A model generated the notes under the pieces. The model was not told the DNA's origin, ran no database searches, and saw nothing but the letters and a program-made list of their open reading frames with translations. Both the position numbers and the translations under genes were made by a program. A DNA stretch of 64,000 bases from NCBI GenBank assembly GCA_964469335.1, contig CAYXYK010000003.1:68671-132670 (forward strand), in the 5' to 3' direction. Shown here piece by piece: positions 5,748 to 64,000 of this stretch. Every line of letters starts with the position of its first letter. The stretch's first letter is position 1. This stretch comes from an uncultured Candidatus Saccharibacteria bacterium (GTDB taxonomy: Bacteria > Patescibacteriota > Minisyncoccia > Phycocordibacterales > UBA6899).

Positions 5748-6995
5748 ATGTCTAAAAAAGGAAGTCCGCTTTTCACGCTTTTCTTCACCATATTCCTCGA
5801 TATGGTCGGAGTGGGTATCCTCATCCCGGTCATGCCAGTCCTTCTCACTGAGCCGAGTTCCTCACACTTCATCCTCCCCGCAGGAACATCGGTCGAAACG
5901 GGGTACCTTCTGCTCGGACTCCTGTTCACGCTTTTCTCACTCGGACAGTTCCTTGCGGCACCCATCATCGGACAGTTTTCAGATAAGTGGGGAAGAAAGA
6001 AACTCCTTGCGCTCTCGGTATTCGGGACTTCGCTCGGTTTCTTCATGTTCGGTGTGGGAGTCATCTTGGGTAATGTCCCGCTACTGTTCTTCGCTCGGTT
6101 CTTTGCTGGAGTGATGGGAGGGAACATCGTCGTTGCACAAGCCGCCATCGCGGATATCACTACACCCGAGAACCGCGCAAAGAATTTCGGGATGATCGGC
6201 GCGGCGTTCGGACTTGGATTCATTCTTGGACCGTTCATCGGAGGTAAACTCACCGATACGACGCTCGTATCGTGGTTCTCTGCATCCACGCCATTCTTCT
6301 TTGCCGCGGCACTTTCGTTCATCAACGTCATTCAGGTCTTGTACTATCTCACTGAGACGAATCTTCATACGGCGAAGGACAAGAAAGTCGAATGGGGTAA
6401 ATCGTTGTCGAACATCCTCCATGCGCTCAAGATGCCGCGGGTGCGACCGCTGTTCATCACCAACTTCCTCTTCCAAGGTGGTTTTTCGTTCTATATCACG
6501 TTCATGGCGGTCTATCTTTTGGCGAAATTCAATTTCACTCAAGGTGAACTCGGTAACTATTTCGCGTTCGTTGGGATATGGATCGTCATTACTCAGGGGT
6601 TCATCACCAGGAAGGTCGCCCAATATGTAAATGAGACGAAAGTCGTGCAGAACTCGATCATCGCCGTCGGGCTTTGTATCCTCGCGATCGTCATGGTCCC
6701 GTCAAGGAGCCTTCTCTATATGGTAGTCCCGTTCTTTGCGATCGCGGTCGGGCTTTCACAGGCGAACATCACCGCGCTGATCTCACGCTCAGCGGGTGCC
6801 GGTGTGCAAGGGGAAGTCCTCGGAATAAACGGAAGCGTAATGGCACTCGCGCAGGCGATCCCTCCGATCCTTTCAGGAGTGGTAGCCGGACTCTTCGAAC
6901 CGGAAGCGTCACTTCTCATTGCGGCAGCACTCGCTGTCATTGCTGGGCTATATTTCAATAATCATCTCCGTAACCTCAAACTTGCTCACTCATAG
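5748..6995 (+). CDS. MFS transporter (drug:H+ antiporter / tetracycline-efflux-like)
   Basis: 12-TM profile; MFS signature GQFSDKWGRKK between TM2 and TM3. Confidence 0.82.
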   Translation: MSKKGSPLFTLFFTIFLDMVGVGILIPVMPVLLTEPSSSHFILPAGTSVETGYLLLGLLFTLFSLGQFLAAPIIGQFSDKWGRKKLLALSVFGTSLGFFMFGVGVILGNVPLLFFARFFAGVMGGNIVVAQAAIADITTPENRAKNFGMIGAAFGLGFILGPFIGGKLTDTTLVSWFSASTPFFFAAALSFINVIQVLYYLTETNLHTAKDKKVEWGKSLSNILHALKMPRVRPLFITNFLFQGGFSFYITFMAVYLLAKFNFTQGELGNYFAFVGIWIVITQGFITRKVAQYVNETKVVQNSIIAVGLCILAIVMVPSRSLLYMVVPFFAIAVGLSQANITALISRSAGAGVQGEVLGINGSVMALAQAIPPILSGVVAGLFEPEASLLIAAALAVIAGLYFNNHLRNLKLAHS

Positions 6996-7080
6996 AGATA
7001 AAGCAACTGTGGAGATTCTCTATCGGTTTTTCATGCAAAACGCAATATACTTAAGGTAATATAAGCCTAATATATCTCCC

Positions 7081-9435
7081 ATGGAAGTTCTTCTGTTCGG
7101 ATCGTTCCTGATCGCGATCATCTATTTCAATAATCGTATCGGAAAAGCAGAGTGGCGTATCAATGAACTCGAAGGTGCTCTGAAGAAAAACACATCGACC
7201 GCTGGCTCTGAGAAGCAAGCGACACCCACTGCCTCACCGGATGGGCTCGAAAAACTTCTCGCAGTAAGCGCCAAAGAGCCAGTGACGCCGTCCCCAGCAC
7301 CCGCACCACTATATGCAAGTGAGGCGAACAGCAAGACCTCGAGCGTCCCGACGGAAAGCAATGAAGAGACCAGTGCTAGGTGGCTCGGTCGTATCGGTGC
7401 GATCGCGGTGTTGCTTGGAGTAGTGTTCTTCCTCAAGTATGCTTTCGATAACAACTGGATCGGCCCGGTCGGGCGAGTCGCGATCGGAGTACTCTTTGGT
7501 ATCGTCACCGTAGGTATTGGACAGAAGCTTCGTTCGAAGTATCAAAACTATTCCGACATTCTTATCGCGTGCGGTGTCGGCGTACTCTATCTATCCATCT
7601 ACGCATCGTACGGCTTCTACCACATGGTGATGCCCGCAGTCGCACTCTTCCTTATGGCGCTGGTGACCGCAGTCGCACTCCTTATTGCGGTAGTAGACGG
7701 AAGTATCGGCCTTGCCGTCTTTGCCACGCTCGGCGGATTCGCGACTCCGGTAGCACTTTCGACCGGTGAGAACCATCTGGTCGGACTATCTCTCTACATG
7801 ATCATCCTTGATCTTGGTGTATTCGGTGCCGCATTCTATAAGAAATGGTTGAAACTCAATGTGATCGCATTCATCGGCACACTCTTTTTGTTCGAGGGCT
7901 GGATGAGCACGTATTACAGTGAGGCGCAGCTCGCAATGACCTTCTTATTCGGATCAATCTTCTTCGGACTCTTTCTTGCGACTTCCATACTTCATCATCT
8001 TTTGCGCAAAGAACCGACTACCGTTTCCGATCTCCTCCTCATCACCGCAAATGCGGCGTGGTATTTTTCCCTCGGGTATCGACTGTTCGATCCGCTGTAC
8101 CATGAGTATCTCGGTTTCTTCGCATTTCTTCTTTCGGCACTGTATTTGGCGATCGCATATGTCTCATTCAGTTCGAATCGTGCGGATCGCACACTCAATC
8201 TCTTCCTCCCGGGAATTGCCGTCGTGTTCCTCACTGTTGCGATACCGCTGCAGCTCACCGGTCTCTATATCTCCGTTGCTTGGCTTGTGGAGGCGGCTGT
8301 CCTCCTCGCAACATCACTCTACCTACGCGAGAGAGTGATGCAGGTGTTCGCATGGCTCGTGCTCGTACTCGGAATTGCTTCCGTCGGTGATGATGTCTCT
8401 GCGATCCGAAGCGGACTCCACACATGGATGCCGCAACCCGATGCGTGGCAAGTTCCCATTCCGACACTTGCACCGTTCTGGAATACCGGCTTCTTCCTGA
8501 TGATCACGGCAACACTCGTCATCTACTTGTTTGCCTATTTGTATCATCGCTTCCGCGATGCCGACCCTGAAGCATCGCACGCGATGCTCCTTTCGCTAGT
8601 GCTTGGCAGTATCGCTACGGCGATCACATTCACGGTCGAGCTCGATAACGGGCTCGATAACTGGGTGGCTCTCCCGTGGCTATTCGAAGGCCTACTCGTG
8701 CTGTTCATCGGTCTTCGTCTTCGCTCCAAGCTCACACAAGGTGTGGGGTGGCTGATCTCCGCGCTTGGCTTGATGGCGATGGGGGGAGCAGTAGGGAACA
8801 TCCACCAAGCACACGGAGTATCAGGGACAGATGCTCCCGCGTTCTTCAATCTTGGAACACTCCTGATGCTCTGCTCAGTCGGAGTTACCTATGTTTTCGC
8901 GTATCTCTACCGGCTTCATAAGGAAAGTATCCCTGACTGGAAGAAATATGCCGGAGTACTGGTGATCATCGCGAATCTCCTTACTGTTGCATGTTTCACC
9001 TGGGAGATCGGTTACAGCTATGATCTGCGCATTCGTACACTCTCCTACGAATCGGCACGTATCCAAGCTGATGCCCAGAATTATTATGGAGGGGCAGCAG
9101 ATCCTTCGTATGTTCCCAATCCTGACGTGAACTCCGTACCGTACTATGTGGAGGTGAAGGATATCAAGAGCTCGAAAGAGACAGCGATCACGATCTTCTG
9201 GGCGTTCTATGCGATACTCCTGCTCGTCGTCGGCTTTGCGAAGCGTCTGCGAGTTATTCGTTTGTTCGGGCTAGTGTTCTTCTTCGTCACCGCGATACGA
9301 GCGTTCCTCATCATCTGGCAGCTCAATGAGCTCACACGGATCATTTCATCAATCGCGTTCGGGGTCATTGCGCTCGCTGGATCGTTCTTGTATGCGAAGT
9401 ATAAGGGTCGTTTACAATCAATCATCCTCGATTAG
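7081..9435 (+). CDS. Large polytopic membrane protein, DUF2339-like
   Basis: N-terminal TM followed by a coiled-coil (AEWRINELEGALKK) and a low-complexity linker, then more than 15 predicted TM helices; the architecture matches DUF2339. Confidence 0.5.
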   Translation: MEVLLFGSFLIAIIYFNNRIGKAEWRINELEGALKKNTSTAGSEKQATPTASPDGLEKLLAVSAKEPVTPSPAPAPLYASEANSKTSSVPTESNEETSARWLGRIGAIAVLLGVVFFLKYAFDNNWIGPVGRVAIGVLFGIVTVGIGQKLRSKYQNYSDILIACGVGVLYLSIYASYGFYHMVMPAVALFLMALVTAVALLIAVVDGSIGLAVFATLGGFATPVALSTGENHLVGLSLYMIILDLGVFGAAFYKKWLKLNVIAFIGTLFLFEGWMSTYYSEAQLAMTFLFGSIFFGLFLATSILHHLLRKEPTTVSDLLLITANAAWYFSLGYRLFDPLYHEYLGFFAFLLSALYLAIAYVSFSSNRADRTLNLFLPGIAVVFLTVAIPLQLTGLYISVAWLVEAAVLLATSLYLRERVMQVFAWLVLVLGIASVGDDVSAIRSGLHTWMPQPDAWQVPIPTLAPFWNTGFFLMITATLVIYLFAYLYHRFRDADPEASHAMLLSLVLGSIATAITFTVELDNGLDNWVALPWLFEGLLVLFIGLRLRSKLTQGVGWLISALGLMAMGGAVGNIHQAHGVSGTDAPAFFNLGTLLMLCSVGVTYVFAYLYRLHKESIPDWKKYAGVLVIIANLLTVACFTWEIGYSYDLRIRTLSYESARIQADAQNYYGGAADPSYVPNPDVNSVPYYVEVKDIKSSKETAITIFWAFYAILLLVVGFAKRLRVIRLFGLVFFFVTAIRAFLIIWQLNELTRIISSIAFGVIALAGSFLYAKYKGRLQSIILD

Positions 9436-9436
9436 T

Positions 9437-9560
9437 GTGGTTTTCAATTCCGGCGAATTTCATCGTTGCCTGCGTCGTGAGTCGGCTCAACGTACGATGA
9501 GTACGTCTCGCCGGCATTACTTCATTTGCGCCTCGAACTTCATTAAGAATTGAAAACCAT
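9437..9560 (+). other. Nested long inverted-repeat structure in the intergenic region (candidate structured RNA or complex terminator)
   Basis: Outer arms gtggttttcaattc(9437-9450) / gaattgaaaaccat(9547-9560); inner ccggcga / tcgccgg; innermost cgtac-gatga-gtacg. Confidence 0.4.
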
Positions 9561-9578
9561 AAAAGAAAATTAATACTC

Positions 9579-10889
9579 ATGAACATGAAAAAAATATTAG
9601 TCACTTGCTCGATGCTTGGTTTTCTTCTTTCTGGGACTGCGTATGCGGATTTCGTTCCTGCAAAGTGGATGTGGAAGAAAGACGTCAGTGATATCGCACC
9701 CACGGAGAGCGGGTCATATGTGAAGGTGCATCTCGACAGGGAAGTGAGTTTCCATGCGAAGAACGATTTGAGCGACCTACGTGTCGCCGAAGAAGGAGTC
9801 GAGATACCATATCAACTCGTCACGCTTTCCGAGCAAGTCCGTGCCGACCACATGCCGAGCACCCTTCGTGACATTTCGACTCGTGATGGAGTATCAATGT
9901 TTGTCATCGACCTAGGTGTCTCCGGCGTCATGAATGATCATCTGAGGATCATTACTGATAGTAAGAATTTCAAACGACCGGTTGCGGTCTATGCATCGGA
10001 TCAGGGGCTTCCAGTCGACGATCCTGCATGGCGGCTGCTTACCGACACAGGATATATTTACAACTTCCATGATGAGAAATCGGGGTTTGATGCAGGTCAA
10101 GGTGAAGTGAGGTACCCGGATAATACCGCACGCTATCTTAAGGTGATAATCGATAACGGAGAAGGTGAGACTGTCTCAGTCAAGAGCGCAGAGGTGCTGC
10201 GTCTTTCGGCTCGCGAGAGCGTTGAAAATGTGATCCGCCCCTCTGCGACGATAGTTGATAATCCCGCGAAGAAGACAACAGAAATAACCGCGGACCTCGG
10301 TGGAACGGGAATCCCGACCCATCGAATCACACTTGCTACGCTCGATGCGAGAAATTTCAGTCGCCGTGCGCTCGTACTAGAAAGTAACGACGCAGTAAAT
10401 TGGAATTCCATCGGAGAAGGGTACCTGTTCGCGCTCGACACTGAGCTCTTTAGGGGGGATGCTCTCACGCTTTCTTACCGTGAAAGTCATTCGAGATACA
10501 TCCGAGTTCTGGTAATGAATCAGGACGACCTGCCTATATCGTGGAATCAAAGTGTTTCGATCGAAAGTACAGTTCGCGCGGTGGTATTTAGGGCGACTCT
10601 CGGTAAGCGCTATGCACTCTATTACGGAAACCCCTCCGCAGTTGCGCCGAACTATGATCTTTCTCGCTACTTCCAGTACATCGAAAGTGCCGGACTTGCT
10701 CGGGTAACACTCCTGTCCGAATCCGCGAACGAACAGTATGTTCAGCCTGCTCCTCCGGTCATCCCGTATTCAGAAAAGCACCCGAATTTGCTCTCGGCCG
10801 TTCTGGTGCTTCTGGTTGCCATGCTGTCATTCTTCCTTCTTTCGTACGTCAAAAAGCTGAAACATTCTCCGCGGGGTGAAAATGAATAA
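9579..10889 (+). CDS. Secreted protein with C-terminal TM anchor, possibly DUF3999 family
   Basis: Signal peptide (MNMKKILVTCSMLGFLLSGTAYA), C-terminal hydrophobic helix. The DUF3999 assignment is tentative: it is based on recalled co-occurrence with DUF2339 neighbours, not on a recognised sequence motif. Confidence 0.35.
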   Translation: MNMKKILVTCSMLGFLLSGTAYADFVPAKWMWKKDVSDIAPTESGSYVKVHLDREVSFHAKNDLSDLRVAEEGVEIPYQLVTLSEQVRADHMPSTLRDISTRDGVSMFVIDLGVSGVMNDHLRIITDSKNFKRPVAVYASDQGLPVDDPAWRLLTDTGYIYNFHDEKSGFDAGQGEVRYPDNTARYLKVIIDNGEGETVSVKSAEVLRLSARESVENVIRPSATIVDNPAKKTTEITADLGGTGIPTHRITLATLDARNFSRRALVLESNDAVNWNSIGEGYLFALDTELFRGDALTLSYRESHSRYIRVLVMNQDDLPISWNQSVSIESTVRAVVFRATLGKRYALYYGNPSAVAPNYDLSRYFQYIESAGLARVTLLSESANEQYVQPAPPVIPYSEKHPNLLSAVLVLLVAMLSFFLLSYVKKLKHSPRGENE

Positions 10890-10935
10890 TCCATGATTTC
10901 CATCCAGGAATGAAAATGCGCTATACTGTCTCCAT

Positions 10936-12006
10936 ATGACGAAACCAAACATCGGCGAGCTGGTATTCTTTTGGATCCTTTTCGGGGTGGCCGGGGTACT
11001 GTCATTCTTCGTGATGACGCCGTATCTCAGTGGGCTGTTCCTCTCTGTGGTCATGACAGTGCTGTTCCTTCCTGTTTTTCGGAAGATCCATGCGATGATC
11101 GGGAAAGGCCGTGCGTGGCCGGCACTTATCACTGTGCTTCTCGCGCTTGCGATCATACTGGTTCCAGTGATCTTCTTTGGCATACTCATGTTCCAGGAAG
11201 TCGTGAACATCTATGTCGCGTTGACGCAGCCAGGGTCTACCGTTGTCAGTGACATCAATGGTGCTACGACCAGTTTCGAGCGATTCATGCAGCACTACAT
11301 CCCACAGTTCGCTCTCAAGACGAATGTCACGAGTTATTTACAGTCGATACTGAGTTATGTAGCGACGAACCTCAATTCGTTCTTCTCCGGGATCATCGCT
11401 ATCGTCATCGATCTGTTCATCATTATCGGCGCGATGTTCTTCTTCTATCGTGACGGTGAGAAGCTTCACAATTTTGCGGTGAAGTGGAGCCCGCTTGCCG
11501 ACCGTTATGATGAAAGCTTGATCAAGAAGCTTGAGATCGCGATCAGCGCGGTCGTCTCCGGAGCTCTTTTCGTATCGGTCATCCAGGGATTCACCATCGG
11601 CATCGGCTTTGCGGTTTTCGGACTCCCGAATCCGGTCCTATGGGGGGCGGTCTCCGTCATCGCCGCGCTCATCCCCATCGTTGGTACTGCTATCATCACC
11701 ATACCGGCGGGTCTCTATCTGATCTTCCAAGGAAGCTATACTGAAGGAGTACTCATGCTCATCTACGGAGGGGTGATCGTCGGAACCATTGATAATCTCA
11801 TCCGCCCACTTTTCATCAAGCGGGGTGTTGATATCCATCCGTTCGTCATCCTCCTCTCTGTGCTCGGCGGTCTTGTCTATTTCGGGCCGATCGGGTTTCT
11901 TGCCGGTCCTATTACCATCGCCTTTTTCTACGCGCTCCTCGATATCTATCCGGCGATCGTATCCGGTAAGCAGCCGAAAGAAACAACCGACGTCGTATCG
12001 TCATGA
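10936..12006 (+). CDS. AI-2E family transporter (PerM/UPF0118-like)
   Basis: About 8 TM helices; size and topology fit the AI-2E family; TATACT 8 nt upstream of the ATG. Confidence 0.55.
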   Translation: MTKPNIGELVFFWILFGVAGVLSFFVMTPYLSGLFLSVVMTVLFLPVFRKIHAMIGKGRAWPALITVLLALAIILVPVIFFGILMFQEVVNIYVALTQPGSTVVSDINGATTSFERFMQHYIPQFALKTNVTSYLQSILSYVATNLNSFFSGIIAIVIDLFIIIGAMFFFYRDGEKLHNFAVKWSPLADRYDESLIKKLEIAISAVVSGALFVSVIQGFTIGIGFAVFGLPNPVLWGAVSVIAALIPIVGTAIITIPAGLYLIFQGSYTEGVLMLIYGGVIVGTIDNLIRPLFIKRGVDIHPFVILLSVLGGLVYFGPIGFLAGPITIAFFYALLDIYPAIVSGKQPKETTDVVSS

Positions 12007-59063: not shown

Positions 59064-60803
59064 TCAGTTCTGTGTACGCTCCGACACTTCCTTCGCGAGC
59101 CGCTGGAGGAAATCCTCAGATGCAAGACCTTCGAGCTTCGCGCCGTCACGGCATTCGATGGTGAGCGTGTCGCTCTCGCTCTCTTTGTCGCCTATGACGA
59201 CGACATATGGCACCTTCATCTCTTTTTGGGCGCGTATACGCTTGCCGAGACTGTTGTCTGATGCATCGCACACTGTGCGGATACCTGCCTGTTTGAGTTT
59301 CTTCTCGAGGACCAAACAGTATTCGACGTGTTTCTCCATGACGGGAATAACGGCGACCTGTGTCGGTGCGAGCCAGACGGGAAAGTTGCCTGCAGTATGT
59401 TCGATAAGGATCGAAAGGAAGCGTTCGATCGAACCCATAATTGCAGCATGGATCATGACGATGCGCTCGTTCTCTCCCTTCTCGTTCCGACAAGTGAGGT
59501 CGAAGCGTTCCGGCATATTGAGGTCGAGTTGGATGGTTGCGACTTGCCAGTTCCTGCCGATCGCGTCCTTTGCCATGAAGTCGAGCTTCGGTCCGTAGAA
59601 AGCAGCCTCGCCGATCCCTTCGAATGAGTCAGCTCCTTTTTCGTTCGCGATCTCCGTCAGCATGTTTTCGGCAAATGCCCAACGCTCTTTGTCACCGAGG
59701 TATTTCTCTGGAGTCTTGGGGTCATGCTTGGAGATACGAACGCGCAGGGTGAATCCGAACTTGCCGTAGAATTCATGGACGATATCCCAAATCTTGAGGA
59801 ATTCCTCCTTCGCCTGTGACATGCGACAAAAGACATGGGCATCGTCCTGAGTGAATGCGCGAACACGTGAGAGTCCAGAGAGTTCGCCGGTCTGTTCGTC
59901 GCGGTAGCACATGGTCGAATTCGCATAGCGCTGAGGAAGATCACGATAGCTCCACAGCTTGCGGGCGTAAATCTGCGTGTGGTGGGGGCAGTTCATTGGT
60001 TTCATGGCGAATTCGTGGCCGTCACGCGTAATGACCCGGAAGAGGTCATCTTTGTATTTGTCCCAGTGTCCGCTCTTCTCGTAGAGCTCTTTCTTGGTGA
60101 TGTGCGGAATCTCCACCTTCTCATACTCCCGCATTGCACGCAGTTCCCATACGAAGTTATCGAGTGTGTTCCGCAAGAGTGTACCCTTTGGCGTCCAGAG
60201 AGGGAGTCCAGGTCCGACGAGCTCTGAGAACGTGAAGAGATCGAGCTCTACACCGAGTTTCTTGTGGTCGCGTTTTTTCGCTTCTTCGAGCTGGAGGAGA
60301 TGTGCCTTGAGCGCGTCCTTCGACTCGAAGGCCATGCCGTAGATGCGAGTGAGCATCGGGTTCTTCTCGTCGCCGCGCCAATATGCGCCTGCGATACGGG
60401 TAAGGGTAAATCCGTCACCAGCGATCTCCCCGGTGTTCGCAACGTGTCCGCCCTTGCACAGGTCGGTGAACTCGCCGACGGTGTATGCAGTGAGGGTCTT
60501 ACCTTCTGCGGCGTACTCGTTCAAGAGTTCAAGTTTGAACGGCTGATCAGCGAACAGCTTTGCGCCTTCCTTCTGGTCGATCTCCCGTCCCGTCATTGGC
60601 AGCTTCTTGTTCACCAGTTTTTGCATCGCGCGTTCAAGTGACTTGAAGTCGTCTTGGGTCGGAACTTTGGTGAATTGGAAGTCGTAGTAGAAACCATCAT
60701 CAGTGGTCGGTCCGATGCCAAGTTTCACTTCCGGATCGAATTCCTTCGCCGCAGTCGCAAGGAGGTGGGCGAGCGTATGTCGAATCTGTTCTATGTCAGC
60801 CAT
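59064..60803 (-). CDS. thrS: Threonine--tRNA ligase (short form lacking N-terminal TGS domains)
   Basis: N2/editing-like N-terminus, class II catalytic core (HRDLPQRYA..., FHAxxxE), and anticodon-binding domain. Confidence 0.93.
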   Translation of the reverse strand: MADIEQIRHTLAHLLATAAKEFDPEVKLGIGPTTDDGFYYDFQFTKVPTQDDFKSLERAMQKLVNKKLPMTGREIDQKEGAKLFADQPFKLELLNEYAAEGKTLTAYTVGEFTDLCKGGHVANTGEIAGDGFTLTRIAGAYWRGDEKNPMLTRIYGMAFESKDALKAHLLQLEEAKKRDHKKLGVELDLFTFSELVGPGLPLWTPKGTLLRNTLDNFVWELRAMREYEKVEIPHITKKELYEKSGHWDKYKDDLFRVITRDGHEFAMKPMNCPHHTQIYARKLWSYRDLPQRYANSTMCYRDEQTGELSGLSRVRAFTQDDAHVFCRMSQAKEEFLKIWDIVHEFYGKFGFTLRVRISKHDPKTPEKYLGDKERWAFAENMLTEIANEKGADSFEGIGEAAFYGPKLDFMAKDAIGRNWQVATIQLDLNMPERFDLTCRNEKGENERIVMIHAAIMGSIERFLSILIEHTAGNFPVWLAPTQVAVIPVMEKHVEYCLVLEKKLKQAGIRTVCDASDNSLGKRIRAQKEMKVPYVVVIGDKESESDTLTIECRDGAKLEGLASEDFLQRLAKEVSERTQN

Positions 60804-61542: not shown

Positions 61543-62202
61543 ATGGCACCGCACCTCCTCCTAAAGTTCCTTATTGTATCGATCATGATCGGACTTCTGC
61601 TGTTCACCGGAATGGTACTACTCGCATTCCTCGTCATTAAGATGGGATCGAGTCGATTTCTGTACACTATCGATGCAGTTCCGCCTGCGCACACGGCGAT
61701 CGTTCTTGGTGCTGCGATCATGAAAGATGGGACGCCGACGCAGATATTCAAGGATCGGATCGATACCGCCGCAGCGCTGTATCGCGATGGGAAAGTGAAG
61801 AGCATCCTGATCACTGGAGATGACGGCTCGCGCACGCATAATGAAGTGAACCCGGCACGAGACTACCTCCTCTCCTTAGGTGTGCCGAGTGAAGCGATCT
61901 TCCTCGACCATGCCGGATTCGATACGTATAGCAGCATGTATCGCGCAAAAGAGGTTTTCTATGTCGGCTCTGCGATCATCTGTACGCAGTCGTTCCACTT
62001 GCCGCGTGCGGTGTTCATTGCAAGGCGTCTCGGTCTCGACGTATACGGCGTGGCATCGGATCAGCACGGATATTTTCTACGCAACAACTTCCGTGAACTC
62101 CTCGCAGATGTGAAAGCGGTGTTCAATCTCATCACGATGCGCGAACCGAAGTATCTCGGAGAGCCTATCCCTATCACAGGGGACAGTTCCAAGTCGATCT
62201 AG
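61543..62202 (+). CDS. SanA/YdcF-like (DUF218) membrane-anchored protein
   Basis: N-terminal TM then ILITGDDGSRTHNEVNPARDYLLSLGVP and HLPRA motifs of DUF218; start at MAPHLLLKF. Confidence 0.65.
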   Translation: MAPHLLLKFLIVSIMIGLLLFTGMVLLAFLVIKMGSSRFLYTIDAVPPAHTAIVLGAAIMKDGTPTQIFKDRIDTAAALYRDGKVKSILITGDDGSRTHNEVNPARDYLLSLGVPSEAIFLDHAGFDTYSSMYRAKEVFYVGSAIICTQSFHLPRAVFIARRLGLDVYGVASDQHGYFLRNNFRELLADVKAVFNLITMREPKYLGEPIPITGDSSKSI

Positions 62203-62429
62203 ACCAATGTGAAGTTGTCGACGGGAGTCGCATCCCATTTCCGTCGCATCTCCTCGCCCCATTTCTTCGGGTCTTTCTTGTGCTCTTGCTCCATTTTGTT
62301 CGCAAGGAGTTGATGCGAGTCCGTGACGTGAGTCGTCATCGACGCAACCATATCTCCCCACGTCGTAGTCGTGAATTTCTCGTCACATTCTCCTCCAAGT
62401 TCTCTGCAGGTCATAGTTTTCGTTTTCAT
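62199..62429 (-). CDS. DUF1059 family small protein (predicted metal-binding)
   Basis: MKTKTMTCRELGGECDEKF...KDPKKWGEEMRRKWDATP matches the DUF1059 consensus; the long ORF in the track is an upstream read-through. Confidence 0.65.
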   Translation of the reverse strand: MKTKTMTCRELGGECDEKFTTTTWGDMVASMTTHVTDSHQLLANKMEQEHKKDPKKWGEEMRRKWDATPVDNFTLV

Positions 62430-62504: not shown

Positions 62505-62540
62505 TGAAATGAAACCGCCCACACGAAGGTGGGCGGGGTT
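62505..62540 (-). terminator. Intrinsic terminator (minus strand)
   Basis: On the minus strand: AACCCCGCCCACC-TTCGT-GTGGGCGG followed by TTTCATTTCA. Confidence 0.6.
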
Positions 62541-62559
62541 CGGCCGGGGGGCCAGTGGG

Positions 62560-62781
62560 TCAGCGCGGCGCGCGGCTGTGCGTGCGGCGTTCGCGATTGC
62601 GACGACGCTTGGCAGCGACTTCGCAGATGATCCCGAACAGGACCGCGATCGGCATCGCGTAGACGAAGTAGACGCCGCCGGCGATGTTGTTGTGAACGCA
62701 GTACAGGCTGCCGAACACCAGTGCGACGAACACCCAGATGGCGATGACTGCGCCGCGGGTGAGTTTGGAATCATTGTCCAT
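62560..62781 (-). CDS. Small two-TM protein with Arg-rich C-terminal tail (hypothetical)
   Basis: 73 aa (MDNDSKLTRGAVIAIWVFVALVFGSLY...MPIAVLFGIICEVAAKRRRNRERR); SD GGAG 6 nt upstream; own promoter. Confidence 0.45.
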   Translation of the reverse strand: MDNDSKLTRGAVIAIWVFVALVFGSLYCVHNNIAGGVYFVYAMPIAVLFGIICEVAAKRRRNRERRTHSRAPR

Positions 62782-62818
62782 CGAGGTCTCCTTCAAAGAG
62801 CGGTTGAACGATGGGTAA

Positions 62819-62848
62819 ATGATAGCATAAAAATATATATTTGTCAAA
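62819..62848 (-). promoter_or_regulatory. Sigma70-type promoter TTGACA-N18-TATCAT (minus strand) driving the small TM protein
   Basis: The minus strand reads TTGACAAATATATATTTTTATGCTATCAT. Confidence 0.55.
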
Positions 62849-62861
62849 CATATGGAGCAGT

Positions 62862-62905
62862 AAAAAACCGCTGCATTCGGCCATGGATTGGCGCTTCGGC
62901 AGCGG
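62862..62905 (-). terminator. Intrinsic terminator directly after the RT stop codon (minus strand)
   Basis: CCGCTGC ... GCAGCGG stem followed by TTTTTT on the minus strand. Confidence 0.6.
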
Positions 62906-64000
62906 TTAACGTTGTTTTCTTTTTTTCTTGTAGTCCTTGCGGTACGGTTCCGACACGCGTTCGAATTCCTTGCACAAGGCGAAGGTCTTCGCATCGGTGC
63001 GGGTAGGAGCGATCACTTGTTTGTAATAGTGAAGAAACTCTGCGATGATGCCGCGGATCACCTCGGGCGAATCGTTCCACAGCTCCTTGGTAAGGTAGCT
63101 TTGGATGATGCCATGGATGCGGCGACGTTTCTTCTGCGGGAAGACCAATACCGCTTGTCTCGCTTCGCTGCGTTCATCCGAGTCCTCACGCATTCCGACC
63201 TTGGTCACGAACACCGTTCCCATGTGACGAGAGCGAACCGTGCTCTTTCGGTGATTTACTGCGAATCCGGCATCAGCGATGAACTGGCGTATCTCTTGGC
63301 GCATGAAGAACGGGATCGGGATGCCGCGCGAGAATACCAGATCGTCGACATAGCGGGTGTATGTCACGGTGCGCTCGGGTGCCTTGCGGTCGAGCTTCTT
63401 GAAGAAGAACGTGCGTAGGCGCGAGTCGAGGAACACTTCACAGTACAGGTTCAGCAGCATCGGGGAGAGCGGCCCTCCGACCGCGAGTCCTTTGCCGTGC
63501 ATCCCGCCGAATGCGAATGCGACGAAACTTTGCATGCGTGGGAAAAGCGGGTCAGAGCGGAGCGCGAAGTGCGCAAGCTCATTGCGGGCAAACTGGTCTA
63601 CGGAATAGAAGACGCCGTACTCCTCATGGCGGAAGATGAAGGTGAGGAGGAGCGACAGCCGTTCAAGATCGACGGAAGGATACGCATGAGCGAAGTCGGT
63701 GGTGTAGAAGAATTCACCTTGCGTATGCTTCTCCGAGTTCTTCATCGGGTTCGACTTCTTCACACAGCCGGTCGCGGAGGGGAGGATGCGCAGCCACTTG
63801 CCGTCGTCTCCCATCGCTTCGAGCTGGTGACGCAGGAACGTTTCGAACAAGTGATGCAGTTTGCGCATCGCACCATTCGGGTGTCCTATCAATCTGCGCT
63901 TGCCGCGCAGTTTGTTGGGGGGCTTCACTCCCTTTTTCTCTTTCGGGTCACCCCATCTGAAATTGAAATCAGGCACACCGCTCACTTCCGAGAGCAGTGT
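62906..64000 (-). CDS. Reverse transcriptase, retron-type/standalone bacterial RT (N-terminus runs off the window)
   Basis: RT motif A (YTTDFAHAYPSVD), motif B' (GLAVGGPLSPMLLNLY), motif C (YTRYVDDLVFS); a retron-like NxxKS...FVTKVG region follows YVDD; the frame is open to the window edge. Confidence 0.78.
   Translation of the reverse strand, partial: TLLSEVSGVPDFNFRWGDPKEKKGVKPPNKLRGKRRLIGHPNGAMRKLHHLFETFLRHQLEAMGDDGKWLRILPSATGCVKKSNPMKNSEKHTQGEFFYTTDFAHAYPSVDLERLSLLLTFIFRHEEYGVFYSVDQFARNELAHFALRSDPLFPRMQSFVAFAFGGMHGKGLAVGGPLSPMLLNLYCEVFLDSRLRTFFFKKLDRKAPERTVTYTRYVDDLVFSRGIPIPFFMRQEIRQFIADAGFAVNHRKSTVRSRHMGTVFVTKVGMREDSDERSEARQAVLVFPQKKRRRIHGIIQSYLTKELWNDSPEVIRGIIAEFLHYYKQVIAPTRTDAKTFALCKEFERVSEPYRKDYKKKRKQR

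Follow-up and report, generated by a model that had tools for sequence, protein, structure and literature searches.

Retrons (types I–XIII, Mestre et al., 2020; e.g., Ec86/Eco1, Ec78/Eco7, and Eco8) pair a compact reverse transcriptase (RT) with a non-coding RNA (ncRNA) whose gene lies immediately 5′ of the RT gene, in the same orientation and without an intervening terminator. The ends of this RNA pair in a covarying inverted-repeat helix, its 5′ part is conserved, and its 3′ part is variable. Retron RTs share two hallmarks, the NAxxH motif of region X, between RT2 and RT3, and the VTG motif (Mestre et al., 2020; PMC7736814). An effector is present in some three quarters of retrons (PMC8632793). 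DRT2 (UG2) and DRT9 (UG28), which belong to class 2 of the UG/Abi RTs, likewise combine an RT of about 400 aa with a sizeable structured ncRNA upstream of it and have no obligatory partner (PMC9226505). UG38, a small UG/Abi group, has been reported only from Parcubacteria, Nealsonbacteria, and Atribacteria (Mestre et al., 2022; PMC9226505). The RT biology of the Candidate Phyla Radiation (CPR) has so far been described almost wholly via diversity-generating retroelements (DGRs). The stretch of DNA analyzed here (the window) comprises 64,000 nt of contig CAYXYK010000003.1 (assembly GCA_964469335.1, positions 68,671–132,670) from an uncultured Candidatus Saccharibacteria bacterium, and an RT gene lies at its very end, on the minus strand (62906–64000).

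We consider it moderately likely that this gene encodes the RT of a two-component, effector-less, retron-like RT-ncRNA module that belongs to none of the described retron types and occurs in CPR bacteria only. No retron-like RT-ncRNA system in CPR bacteria was found described in the literature searched, the nearest mentions being the remark on UG38 and papers on DGRs. What sets the module apart is the clade of its RT, an RNA that is both large and distinctive, the missing effector, and a distribution limited to Patescibacteria. It adds to the DGRs a second conserved RT system of these bacteria, with a large RNA of its own.

The reverse transcriptase and its retron relatives

The RT frame runs uninterrupted from position 64000 to a TAA stop codon at 62906–62908, and its 364 translated residues correspond to residues 22–385 of a 385-aa RT. 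A full-length homolog (P0001, 385 aa) is 96% identical, so the window RT is short of its first 21 codons only; an earlier reading made from the sequence alone (the sequence-only reading) had correctly placed the N-terminus beyond the window edge. The translation matched Pfam RVT_1 (E = 7.6e-11, 42.5 bits; cut-off 29.6). A second copy of the locus was found on a JGI metagenome contig of 36.8 kb (L001), which is collinear with the window and runs past its edge. Between the two RTs dS was 0.235 and dN 0.025, and the resulting dN/dS of 0.11 marks the RT as a selected, functional gene. As judged from its sequence, the RT is active-looking and under purifying selection, with its catalytic motifs intact.

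All of the RT motifs proposed in the sequence-only reading (A, B′, C, and the NHRKS...FVTKVG stretch) were present in the minus-strand frame; their invariance was judged over 23 aligned family members. The pentapeptide NSEKH (63725–63739) occupies the position of the retron-type NAxxH motif of region X, directly upstream of motif A (RT3). Its N109 and H113 are invariant and the family consensus is NAxKH, so that the first retron hallmark is present. Motif A, FFYTTDFAHAYPSVD (63668–63712), contains the catalytic aspartate D123, which is invariant; motif B′, GGPLSPMLLNLY (63443–63478), has invariant G196, S200, P201, N205, L206, and Y207; and motif C, YTRYVDDLVFS (63329–63361), contains the catalytic YVDD with invariant D240 and D241. 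The RT6/RT7 stretch NHRKS...GTVFVTKVG (63194–63256; NHRKS at 63242–63256, FVTKVG at 63194–63211) has VTK at the VTG position. The second hallmark is therefore absent: V/I-T-K stands in its place, with T287 invariant and followed by K in most members. The segment NHSKT..HVTGI of retron Ec78 lines up by eye with NHRKS..FVTKV, although the HMMER alignment places the stretch differently. With NAxxH present and VTG replaced by V/I-T-K, the family is retron-like and a member of no described retron type.

Right after the RT stop codon, a terminator-like hairpin could be read from the sequence (62862–62905, minus strand; stem CCGCUGC/GCAGCGG followed by U6), and it is near-identical in L001. Because of the long hairpin loop, an automated terminator scan returned only partial versions of it.

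Model-based classification pointed in the same direction. The best PADLOC matches of the window RT were retron RT models only (~6e-17), as were those of all 23 aligned members (1e-16 to 1e-24). Retron models of every type gave the members similarly low scores (35–60 bits), spread evenly over the types, and no DRT/UG model appeared among the best 25 PADLOC families for any of the 23. The top NCBIfam match was retron_St85_RT, at 61.6 bits against a cut-off of 235, and Ec67 scored 39.7 bits against 450. The hidden Markov model classification that the sequence-only reading had called for thus ranked retron models best, with none at its cut-off and with DRT/UG models outside the best 25 PADLOC families. 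When the family profile was run against PDB sequences, the first 13 matches were retron RTs (1.6e-9 to 4e-6) and a group II intron RT followed at 5.7e-4. The family alignment was used to build an AlphaFold2 model (pLDDT 82.4, pTM 0.78). In Foldseek its first 18 matches were retron RTs (E down to 1.5e-11, query TM-score 0.57); the query TM-scores were 0.50–0.57 for retron RTs, 0.48–0.50 for the GsI-IIC group II intron RT, 0.46 for DRT9, and 0.42 for DRT2. Further figures of the fold comparison were 20.4 for retron Ec86, 20.0 for retron Eco8, 19.8 for retron Eco7, 18.0 for DRT2, 17.6 for a DGR RT, and 15.2 for a group II intron RT. By sequence profile and predicted fold, retron RTs are the nearest known relatives of the window RT, though at a distance. 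Of the retron-type identity first proposed for this RT, the kinship stands (nearest relatives, NAxxH) and assignment to a described type does not (61.6 against 235 bits; VTK).

The same comparisons bear on whether the gene is instead the remnant of a group II intron RT or the RT of a DGR, which can be regarded as effectively refuted. The group II RT/maturase model TIGR04416 reached only 29.4 bits against its cut-off of 300, and Rfam found no intron family in the 5 kb around the RT (L001 8000–13000, E ≤ 1), so that the intron RNA domains once considered possible beyond the window edge are not seen there. With no intron RNA and no maturase-level match, this is not a group II intron. As for DGRs, L001 9480–11600 holds no repeat longer than 21 nt, a small variable open reading frame (ORF) downstream of the RT matches nothing else in the window or L001, and motif B′ GGPLSPMLLNLY, as read from the sequence, is without the SQ signature of DGR RTs; lacking template and variable repeats, the locus is not a DGR. 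In NCBIfam and PADLOC searches and in motif B′, the enzyme is, as the sequence-only reading held, a standalone RT without maturase, endonuclease, or DGR features. UG38 resembles the family in being a rare, CPR-restricted, standalone RT of metagenomic genomes with no known partner. It has been placed in UG/Abi, whereas the present family scores and folds nearest to retron RTs; here UG38 was compared by its description only.

The RNA encoded upstream of the reverse transcriptase

In retrons, the RNA is expected to show an msr with one to three short hairpins followed by an msd of one or two long hairpins. The region upstream of the window RT was studied in L001, which is 98.4–98.5% identical to the window over the genes for threonyl-tRNA synthetase (ThrRS) and GyrB and neighboring genes; over the RT the identity is 93.3%. 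In L001 the RT start is preceded by a gene-free gap of 521 bp, which holds a 15-nt inverted repeat with arms 322 nt apart. This gap folds at a minimum free energy of −163 kcal/mol (z = −4.7 relative to shuffled sequence), and a structured ncRNA of ~360 nt (L001 9598–9957) immediately precedes the RT in the same orientation. The a1/a2-type inverted repeats and upstream RNA that the sequence-only reading had predicted were thus found past the edge, in L001. Projected from this syntenic contig, the RNA gene of the window itself would lie ~107–466 nt past position 64000, and the RT start ~63 nt past it.

An upstream RNA of 290–430 nt was detected in all 22 non-redundant family loci with upstream sequence, and intergenic blocks of L001 recur upstream of RTs that share only 44–50% identity. 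A covariance model of the conserved core (R1) gave exactly one match per family locus with upstream sequence, always upstream of the RT, at 36–85 bits; two further loci, L007 and L091, start no earlier than the RT itself and so offer no upstream sequence to R1. There was no R1 match in ~140 loci carrying other RTs (~1.3 Mb). The upstream RNA is a family-specific, covarying, conserved partner of the RT. Rfam (E ≤ 1, L001 8000–13000) contained no known family matching it, the sole match being a chance ctRNA on the other strand.

Signals for expression are well conserved. A GGAG ribosome-binding site precedes every ATG in the family loci. As read from the sequences, an extended −10 element, TGnTAnnnT, ends 6–8 nt before the almost invariant GGAUCAAGG, the motif being present in 21 of the 22 loci, and GGAUCAAGG (GGAUC) is the likely 5′ end of the RNA. 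No terminator was found between the RNA and the ATG of the RT, so the RNA and the RT are probably co-transcribed, as in retrons.

The RNA ends pair in a closing helix. Its outer part, P1a, has 8–15 contiguous base pairs in 22 of 22 loci and is built from 17 distinct arm sequences (for example GCCGGGAAGC/GCUUCCCGGC, GCCAAGGGGGC/GCCCCCUUGGC, and GCUGGGGAGC/GCUCCCCAGC). Cognate arms pair over 11.1 bp on average, against 7.7 bp for non-cognate and 6.4 bp for shuffled arms, and none of 5000 partner shuffles reached the cognate mean. The inner part, P1b, follows after a 5′ bulge of ~6–14 nt, has wholly different sequences between loci, and gave the same result in the permutation test (0/5000). Inside the closing helix is a conserved 5′ core, in the order ..AAAAGUCUGUCAUAGUAAGCC-hairpin-GGGUAUGGUGGCAGGUAGGGAG-loop-CUCCC-CAUAGCGNAAGCU, which the family alignment resolves into helices P3, P3′, and P4. 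In P3 and P4, 89% of cells are paired, compared with 48–63% when the partners are slid by 1–3 columns, and 11 of 14 pairs change on both sides; the observed values were reached by 0 of 500 shuffles on four of five measures and by 2 of 500 on the fifth. The core is separated from the 3′ strand of P1b by a variable, GC-rich domain of ~130–250 nt, whose fold differs between lineages and comprises 1–6 hairpins at individual loci. One long msd hairpin was considered for this domain and did not hold for the loci in general.

A further near-invariant pairing, P2 (GGAUC/GAUCC), was found at the 5′ end of the RNA, ~45 nt apart in L001 (9599–9603 with 9646–9650). It has equivalent positions in 20 other loci, with compensating variants in L168 (GGAUU/AAUCC) and L170 (GGGA/UCCC). 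Since P2 would cross P1 and enclose the 5′ strands of the closing helix, it could form either a pseudoknot or an alternative conformation; a P2 pseudoknot is possible on these sequence grounds. In most loci a G occurs 1–2 nt after the 5′ arm of P1a, in a context that reads as purine-rich in the alignment. Two other pairings were tried and rejected, that of the 5′ bulge with the 3′ tail and that of the A-tract with the conserved GUUCYUUYCA tail; in both, cognate partners paired no better than non-cognate ones. In most members two copies of a conserved motif, CAUAGUAAGCC (L001 9676–9686) and CAUAGCGCAAGCU (L001 9731–9743), flank P3′–P4.

Partner genes and possible output of the module

Effectors were sought in the genes flanking the RT, as the sequence-only reading had proposed. 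No effector or other gene is conserved next to the RT across ~25 family loci, and PADLOC gave no match among the neighbors tested, including DUF5680, an S51 peptidase, and small ORFs. An SMC-like neighbor was considered as a Septu/OLD-type ATPase effector and rejected, as it is a housekeeping SMC (TIGR02168, 493 bits). Because no effector travels with the module, its output must be the RT-DNA or ribonucleoprotein itself, or it must act via an unlinked host factor.

One gene next to the window RT calls for separate treatment. A transcription unit on the same strand (62515–62847; 11217–11549 in L001) comprises a promoter (62819–62847), a 73-aa ORF (62560–62781), and a terminator (62515–62536). 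It could be argued that the module is an ordinary tripartite retron with an effector that has escaped notice, namely this ORF here and an unlinked gene in other lineages. The ORF follows the RT at a distance of 125 bp, is predicted to have two membrane helices, and is highly divergent between strains: about half of its residues differ between the window and L001, as read from the alignment, with promoter and terminator near-identical. It exists as two alleles, one in the window and the other identical in the five of L001–L006 that reach the ORF (L004 ends at the RT). Retrons with small two-transmembrane effectors next to them are known (type IV in the classification of Mestre et al., 2020). 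However, the ORF has its own strong sigma-70-type promoter (TTGACA-17-TATCAT with an upstream TG, 11 of 12 positions) and its own terminator, just as the RT has a terminator of its own. It matched nothing in PADLOC, Pfam, or NCBIfam and is not diversified at adenines. It is confined to the window/L001 lineage and absent from every other family locus examined, and can thus be at most a lineage-specific add-on. The unit is probably unrelated to the RT, and we regard an overlooked effector of this kind as quite improbable.

For the effector-less, retron-like module favored here, the following scheme can be proposed. Transcription from the TGnTAnnnT promoter would start the RNA at GGAUCAAGG, and RNA and RT would be made from one transcript. 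The RNA ends would pair in the long bipartite helix (P1a of 8–15 bp, 5′ bulge, P1b), equivalent to the a2/a1 repeats of retrons, and this helix would enclose the conserved core (P3, P3′, P4) and the lineage-variable, GC-rich 3′ domain of ~130–250 nt. By analogy with the retron msr, the RT may bind the core as its recognition module; by analogy with the msd, it may copy part of the variable domain into cDNA, starting near the 3′ strand of P1b/P1a. Priming may be by a guanosine in the bulge next to P1a. An anti-phage role would, again by analogy, be the most likely function.

Several observations weigh against this assignment. The VTG motif, whose G is the most conserved residue of retron RTs, is replaced by VTK; all retron family models score far below cut-off (61.6 against 235 bits for the best); and PADLOC prefers no single retron type. 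The RNA has about double the length that is usual in retrons, its variable domain mostly forms several hairpins rather than one long msd stem, and the candidate branching G is not a conserved alignment column. About 75% of retrons have an effector and this RT family never does, and the gene occupies a stable site among housekeeping genes, unlike a typical defense island. Besides these points, the family differs from retrons in having an RT that is ~60–100 residues longer, a distinctive conserved core with the possible pseudoknot P2, and a distribution limited to Patescibacteria; it is known here from sequence, and an msDNA would be expected only by analogy.

The missing effector calls for an output based on the product, and this is where a system in the manner of DRT2 or DRT9 enters. 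In that case RT and ncRNA would be the whole system and the cDNA itself the effector, long, repetitive, or concatemeric, either encoding a toxic product or sequestering a factor, with the retron-like features reflecting ancestry. The architecture is the same as in UG2/DRT2 and UG28/DRT9, with a sizeable 5′ ncRNA, an RT of ~400 aa, and no obligatory partner (PMC9226505). A repeated CAUAG(U)AAGC motif flanks part of the core and could, speculatively, serve template jumping. Sequence-family relationship is lacking, however: Drt2 scored 15.7 bits against an NCBIfam cut-off of 390 and DRT/UG models were missing from the best 25 PADLOC families. In Foldseek, DRT2 (0.42) and DRT9 (0.46) fell below both the retron RTs and GsI-IIC. 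The U-tract of the RNA pairs with the A-tract in a local hairpin and is not exposed as a template, and the RNA matches nothing in Rfam. We consider this alternative unlikely. The readings weighed in this study are not mutually exclusive.

A more far-reaching form of the retron-like reading can be put forward tentatively, and with clearly less confidence than the module itself. The locus would represent an undescribed, CPR-specific class of retroelement, in which a retron-derived RT and a possibly pseudoknotted ncRNA of ~300–400 nt form a complete effector-less unit. The reverse-transcribed product would be the functional output, through a new anti-phage mechanism or a cDNA function tied to episymbiosis, and the unit would combine long vertical retention with fast evolution. 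Genome-editing tools can be built from retron-like RT-ncRNA pairs, which also inform the study of cDNA-based immunity. A compact pair that lacks an effector poses the question of what RT-DNA does with no toxin attached, and the combination of a conserved core with a variable, template-like domain in the RNA makes this question approachable. With a full cassette of only ~1.6 kb (L001 ~9560–11160), it is testable now.

Distribution, genomic setting, and evolution

The family is small. A word-index search gave 142 clusters at 90% identity, the named ones from Patescibacteria, Minisyncoccota, and Kaiserbacteria. An exhaustive profile search of 1.84 billion representatives gave ~35 clusters at 50% identity with full-length scores of 227 bits or more; lower scores grade into a continuum of other RTs. 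Pattern scans of 185,579 species-level genomes detected family loci in ~14, all CPR metagenome-assembled genomes (Parcubacteria, Moraniibacteriota, “Saccharibacteria,” and a few labels that seem wrong), and six metagenome contigs also carry such loci. The proteins are 340–425 aa long, and all named sources are Patescibacteria. No member was found in IMG/VR viral contigs, and a phage-borne origin was rejected on that account. The CPR host proposed in the sequence-only reading agrees with the GyrB of the window, whose best named relatives are from Candidatus Lloydbacteria (80–83% identity).

A sister group of RTs, represented by L092 and L093, is 33–35% identical to the family. These RTs share NAxxH and, unlike the window family, keep VTG/ITG; they are also fused at the C-terminus to a CHC2 zinc ribbon of the DnaG type (PF01807, E = 9e-31; L092 ~5950–7245, L093 828–2072), a domain missing from the window family. 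The ~400-nt gaps upstream of the RT in L092 and L093 held no ncRNA core detectable by R1. R1 did match a sister-group locus that was absent from its training set, L094 (634–726, 39 bits), upstream of the RT. Through NAxxH and VTG/ITG in the sister group, together with the RNA core in L094, the link of the whole clade with retron-type RTs becomes firmer. The CHC2 zinc ribbon of primases binds single-stranded DNA, and its presence in the sister group hints, by analogy, at a single-stranded DNA product. In L092, an RNase H gene is convergent with the RT and follows it immediately.

The genes around the window RT are housekeeping genes, as the sequence-only reading had stated: a DUF218 protein, a cupin, ThrRS, and GyrB. 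The GC-rich island that it had described between 62500 and 64000 is real and modest in size: its GC content is 56.4%, whereas the window averages 51.6% (sd 2.0), and just 0.8% of 1.5-kb segments reach such a value. The sequence-only reading took these features to suggest horizontal acquisition; a recent acquisition could not be substantiated. The RT adjoins ThrRS in L167 and L007 although RT identity is only 62–78%, and ThrRS/GyrB are near the RT in the window, L001, L007, and L167. In a second lineage, eight genomes share an arrangement in which RNase R (minus strand) is followed by a ~500-bp gap that holds the ncRNA, then by the RT, SMC (minus strand), and PAP2/BacA and ATP synthase genes. 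Other sites are between the genes for CTP synthase and L27, before BipA, and beside Mur ligase genes.

The RT itself evolves much faster than its neighbors, so that exchange of alleles may still have taken place. In the RNase R/SMC slot mean identities are 46% for the RT, 80% for RNase R, and 59% for SMC, and RT divergence barely tracks that of the host genes (r = 0.33 and −0.04). Between the window and L001, nucleotide divergence is 6.5% in the RT (62906–64000) and 2.2% in the adjacent ThrRS gene (59064–60803), a roughly threefold difference, which suggests that diverged alleles have been exchanged locally or that substitutions accumulate faster at this site. A positionally stable, fast-evolving RT would fit a conflict gene that undergoes replacement or diversification at a fixed site, and it does not point to an island of recent origin.

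The fixed setting has a different implication if the module has been domesticated, that is, inherited vertically in these reduced-genome episymbionts with a cellular rather than a defensive role such as DNA repair, recombination, or regulation through its cDNA. The constant RNase R–SMC slot in eight genomes, the position by ThrRS in four loci, the housekeeping flanks, the absence from viral contigs, and the strong purifying selection (dN/dS 0.11) all favor this. The Foldseek matches also include the group II-like G2L4, with structure entries that show a DNA snapback substrate bound, and G2L4 has a role in DNA repair. Set against this, the gene is rare (~14 of 185,579 genomes, ~35 clusters at 50% identity), so it does not serve a core CPR function. 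The low identity of the RT relative to RNase R and its weak correlation with host divergence form the pattern expected of conflict genes, and RT divergence is three times that of ThrRS between two strains. Domestication is in our judgment a little less probable still than an output of the DRT2/DRT9 kind, and the effector-less, retron-like module is the reading that we retain.

Some minor features of the loci were also recorded. In the window, a 71-aa ORF (62199–62414, minus strand) is located between the DUF218 gene and the two-transmembrane ORF and has a weak match to DUF1059 (17.9 bits, cut-off 21.1). In one strain variant, L004, a DUF2806/Abi_alpha-like gene (843–1709) and a few extra genes are present ~8 kb upstream of the RT; this gene is the only defense-flavored neighbor in the window/L001 lineage. 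The SMC protein next to the RT in L008, L009, L011, L086, L166, L168, L169, and L170 is only ~745 aa long. It matches both ends of the 1,181-position model TIGR02168 and is 39–78% identical between genomes, and RNase R on the other side of the RT in these genomes is 75–83% identical.

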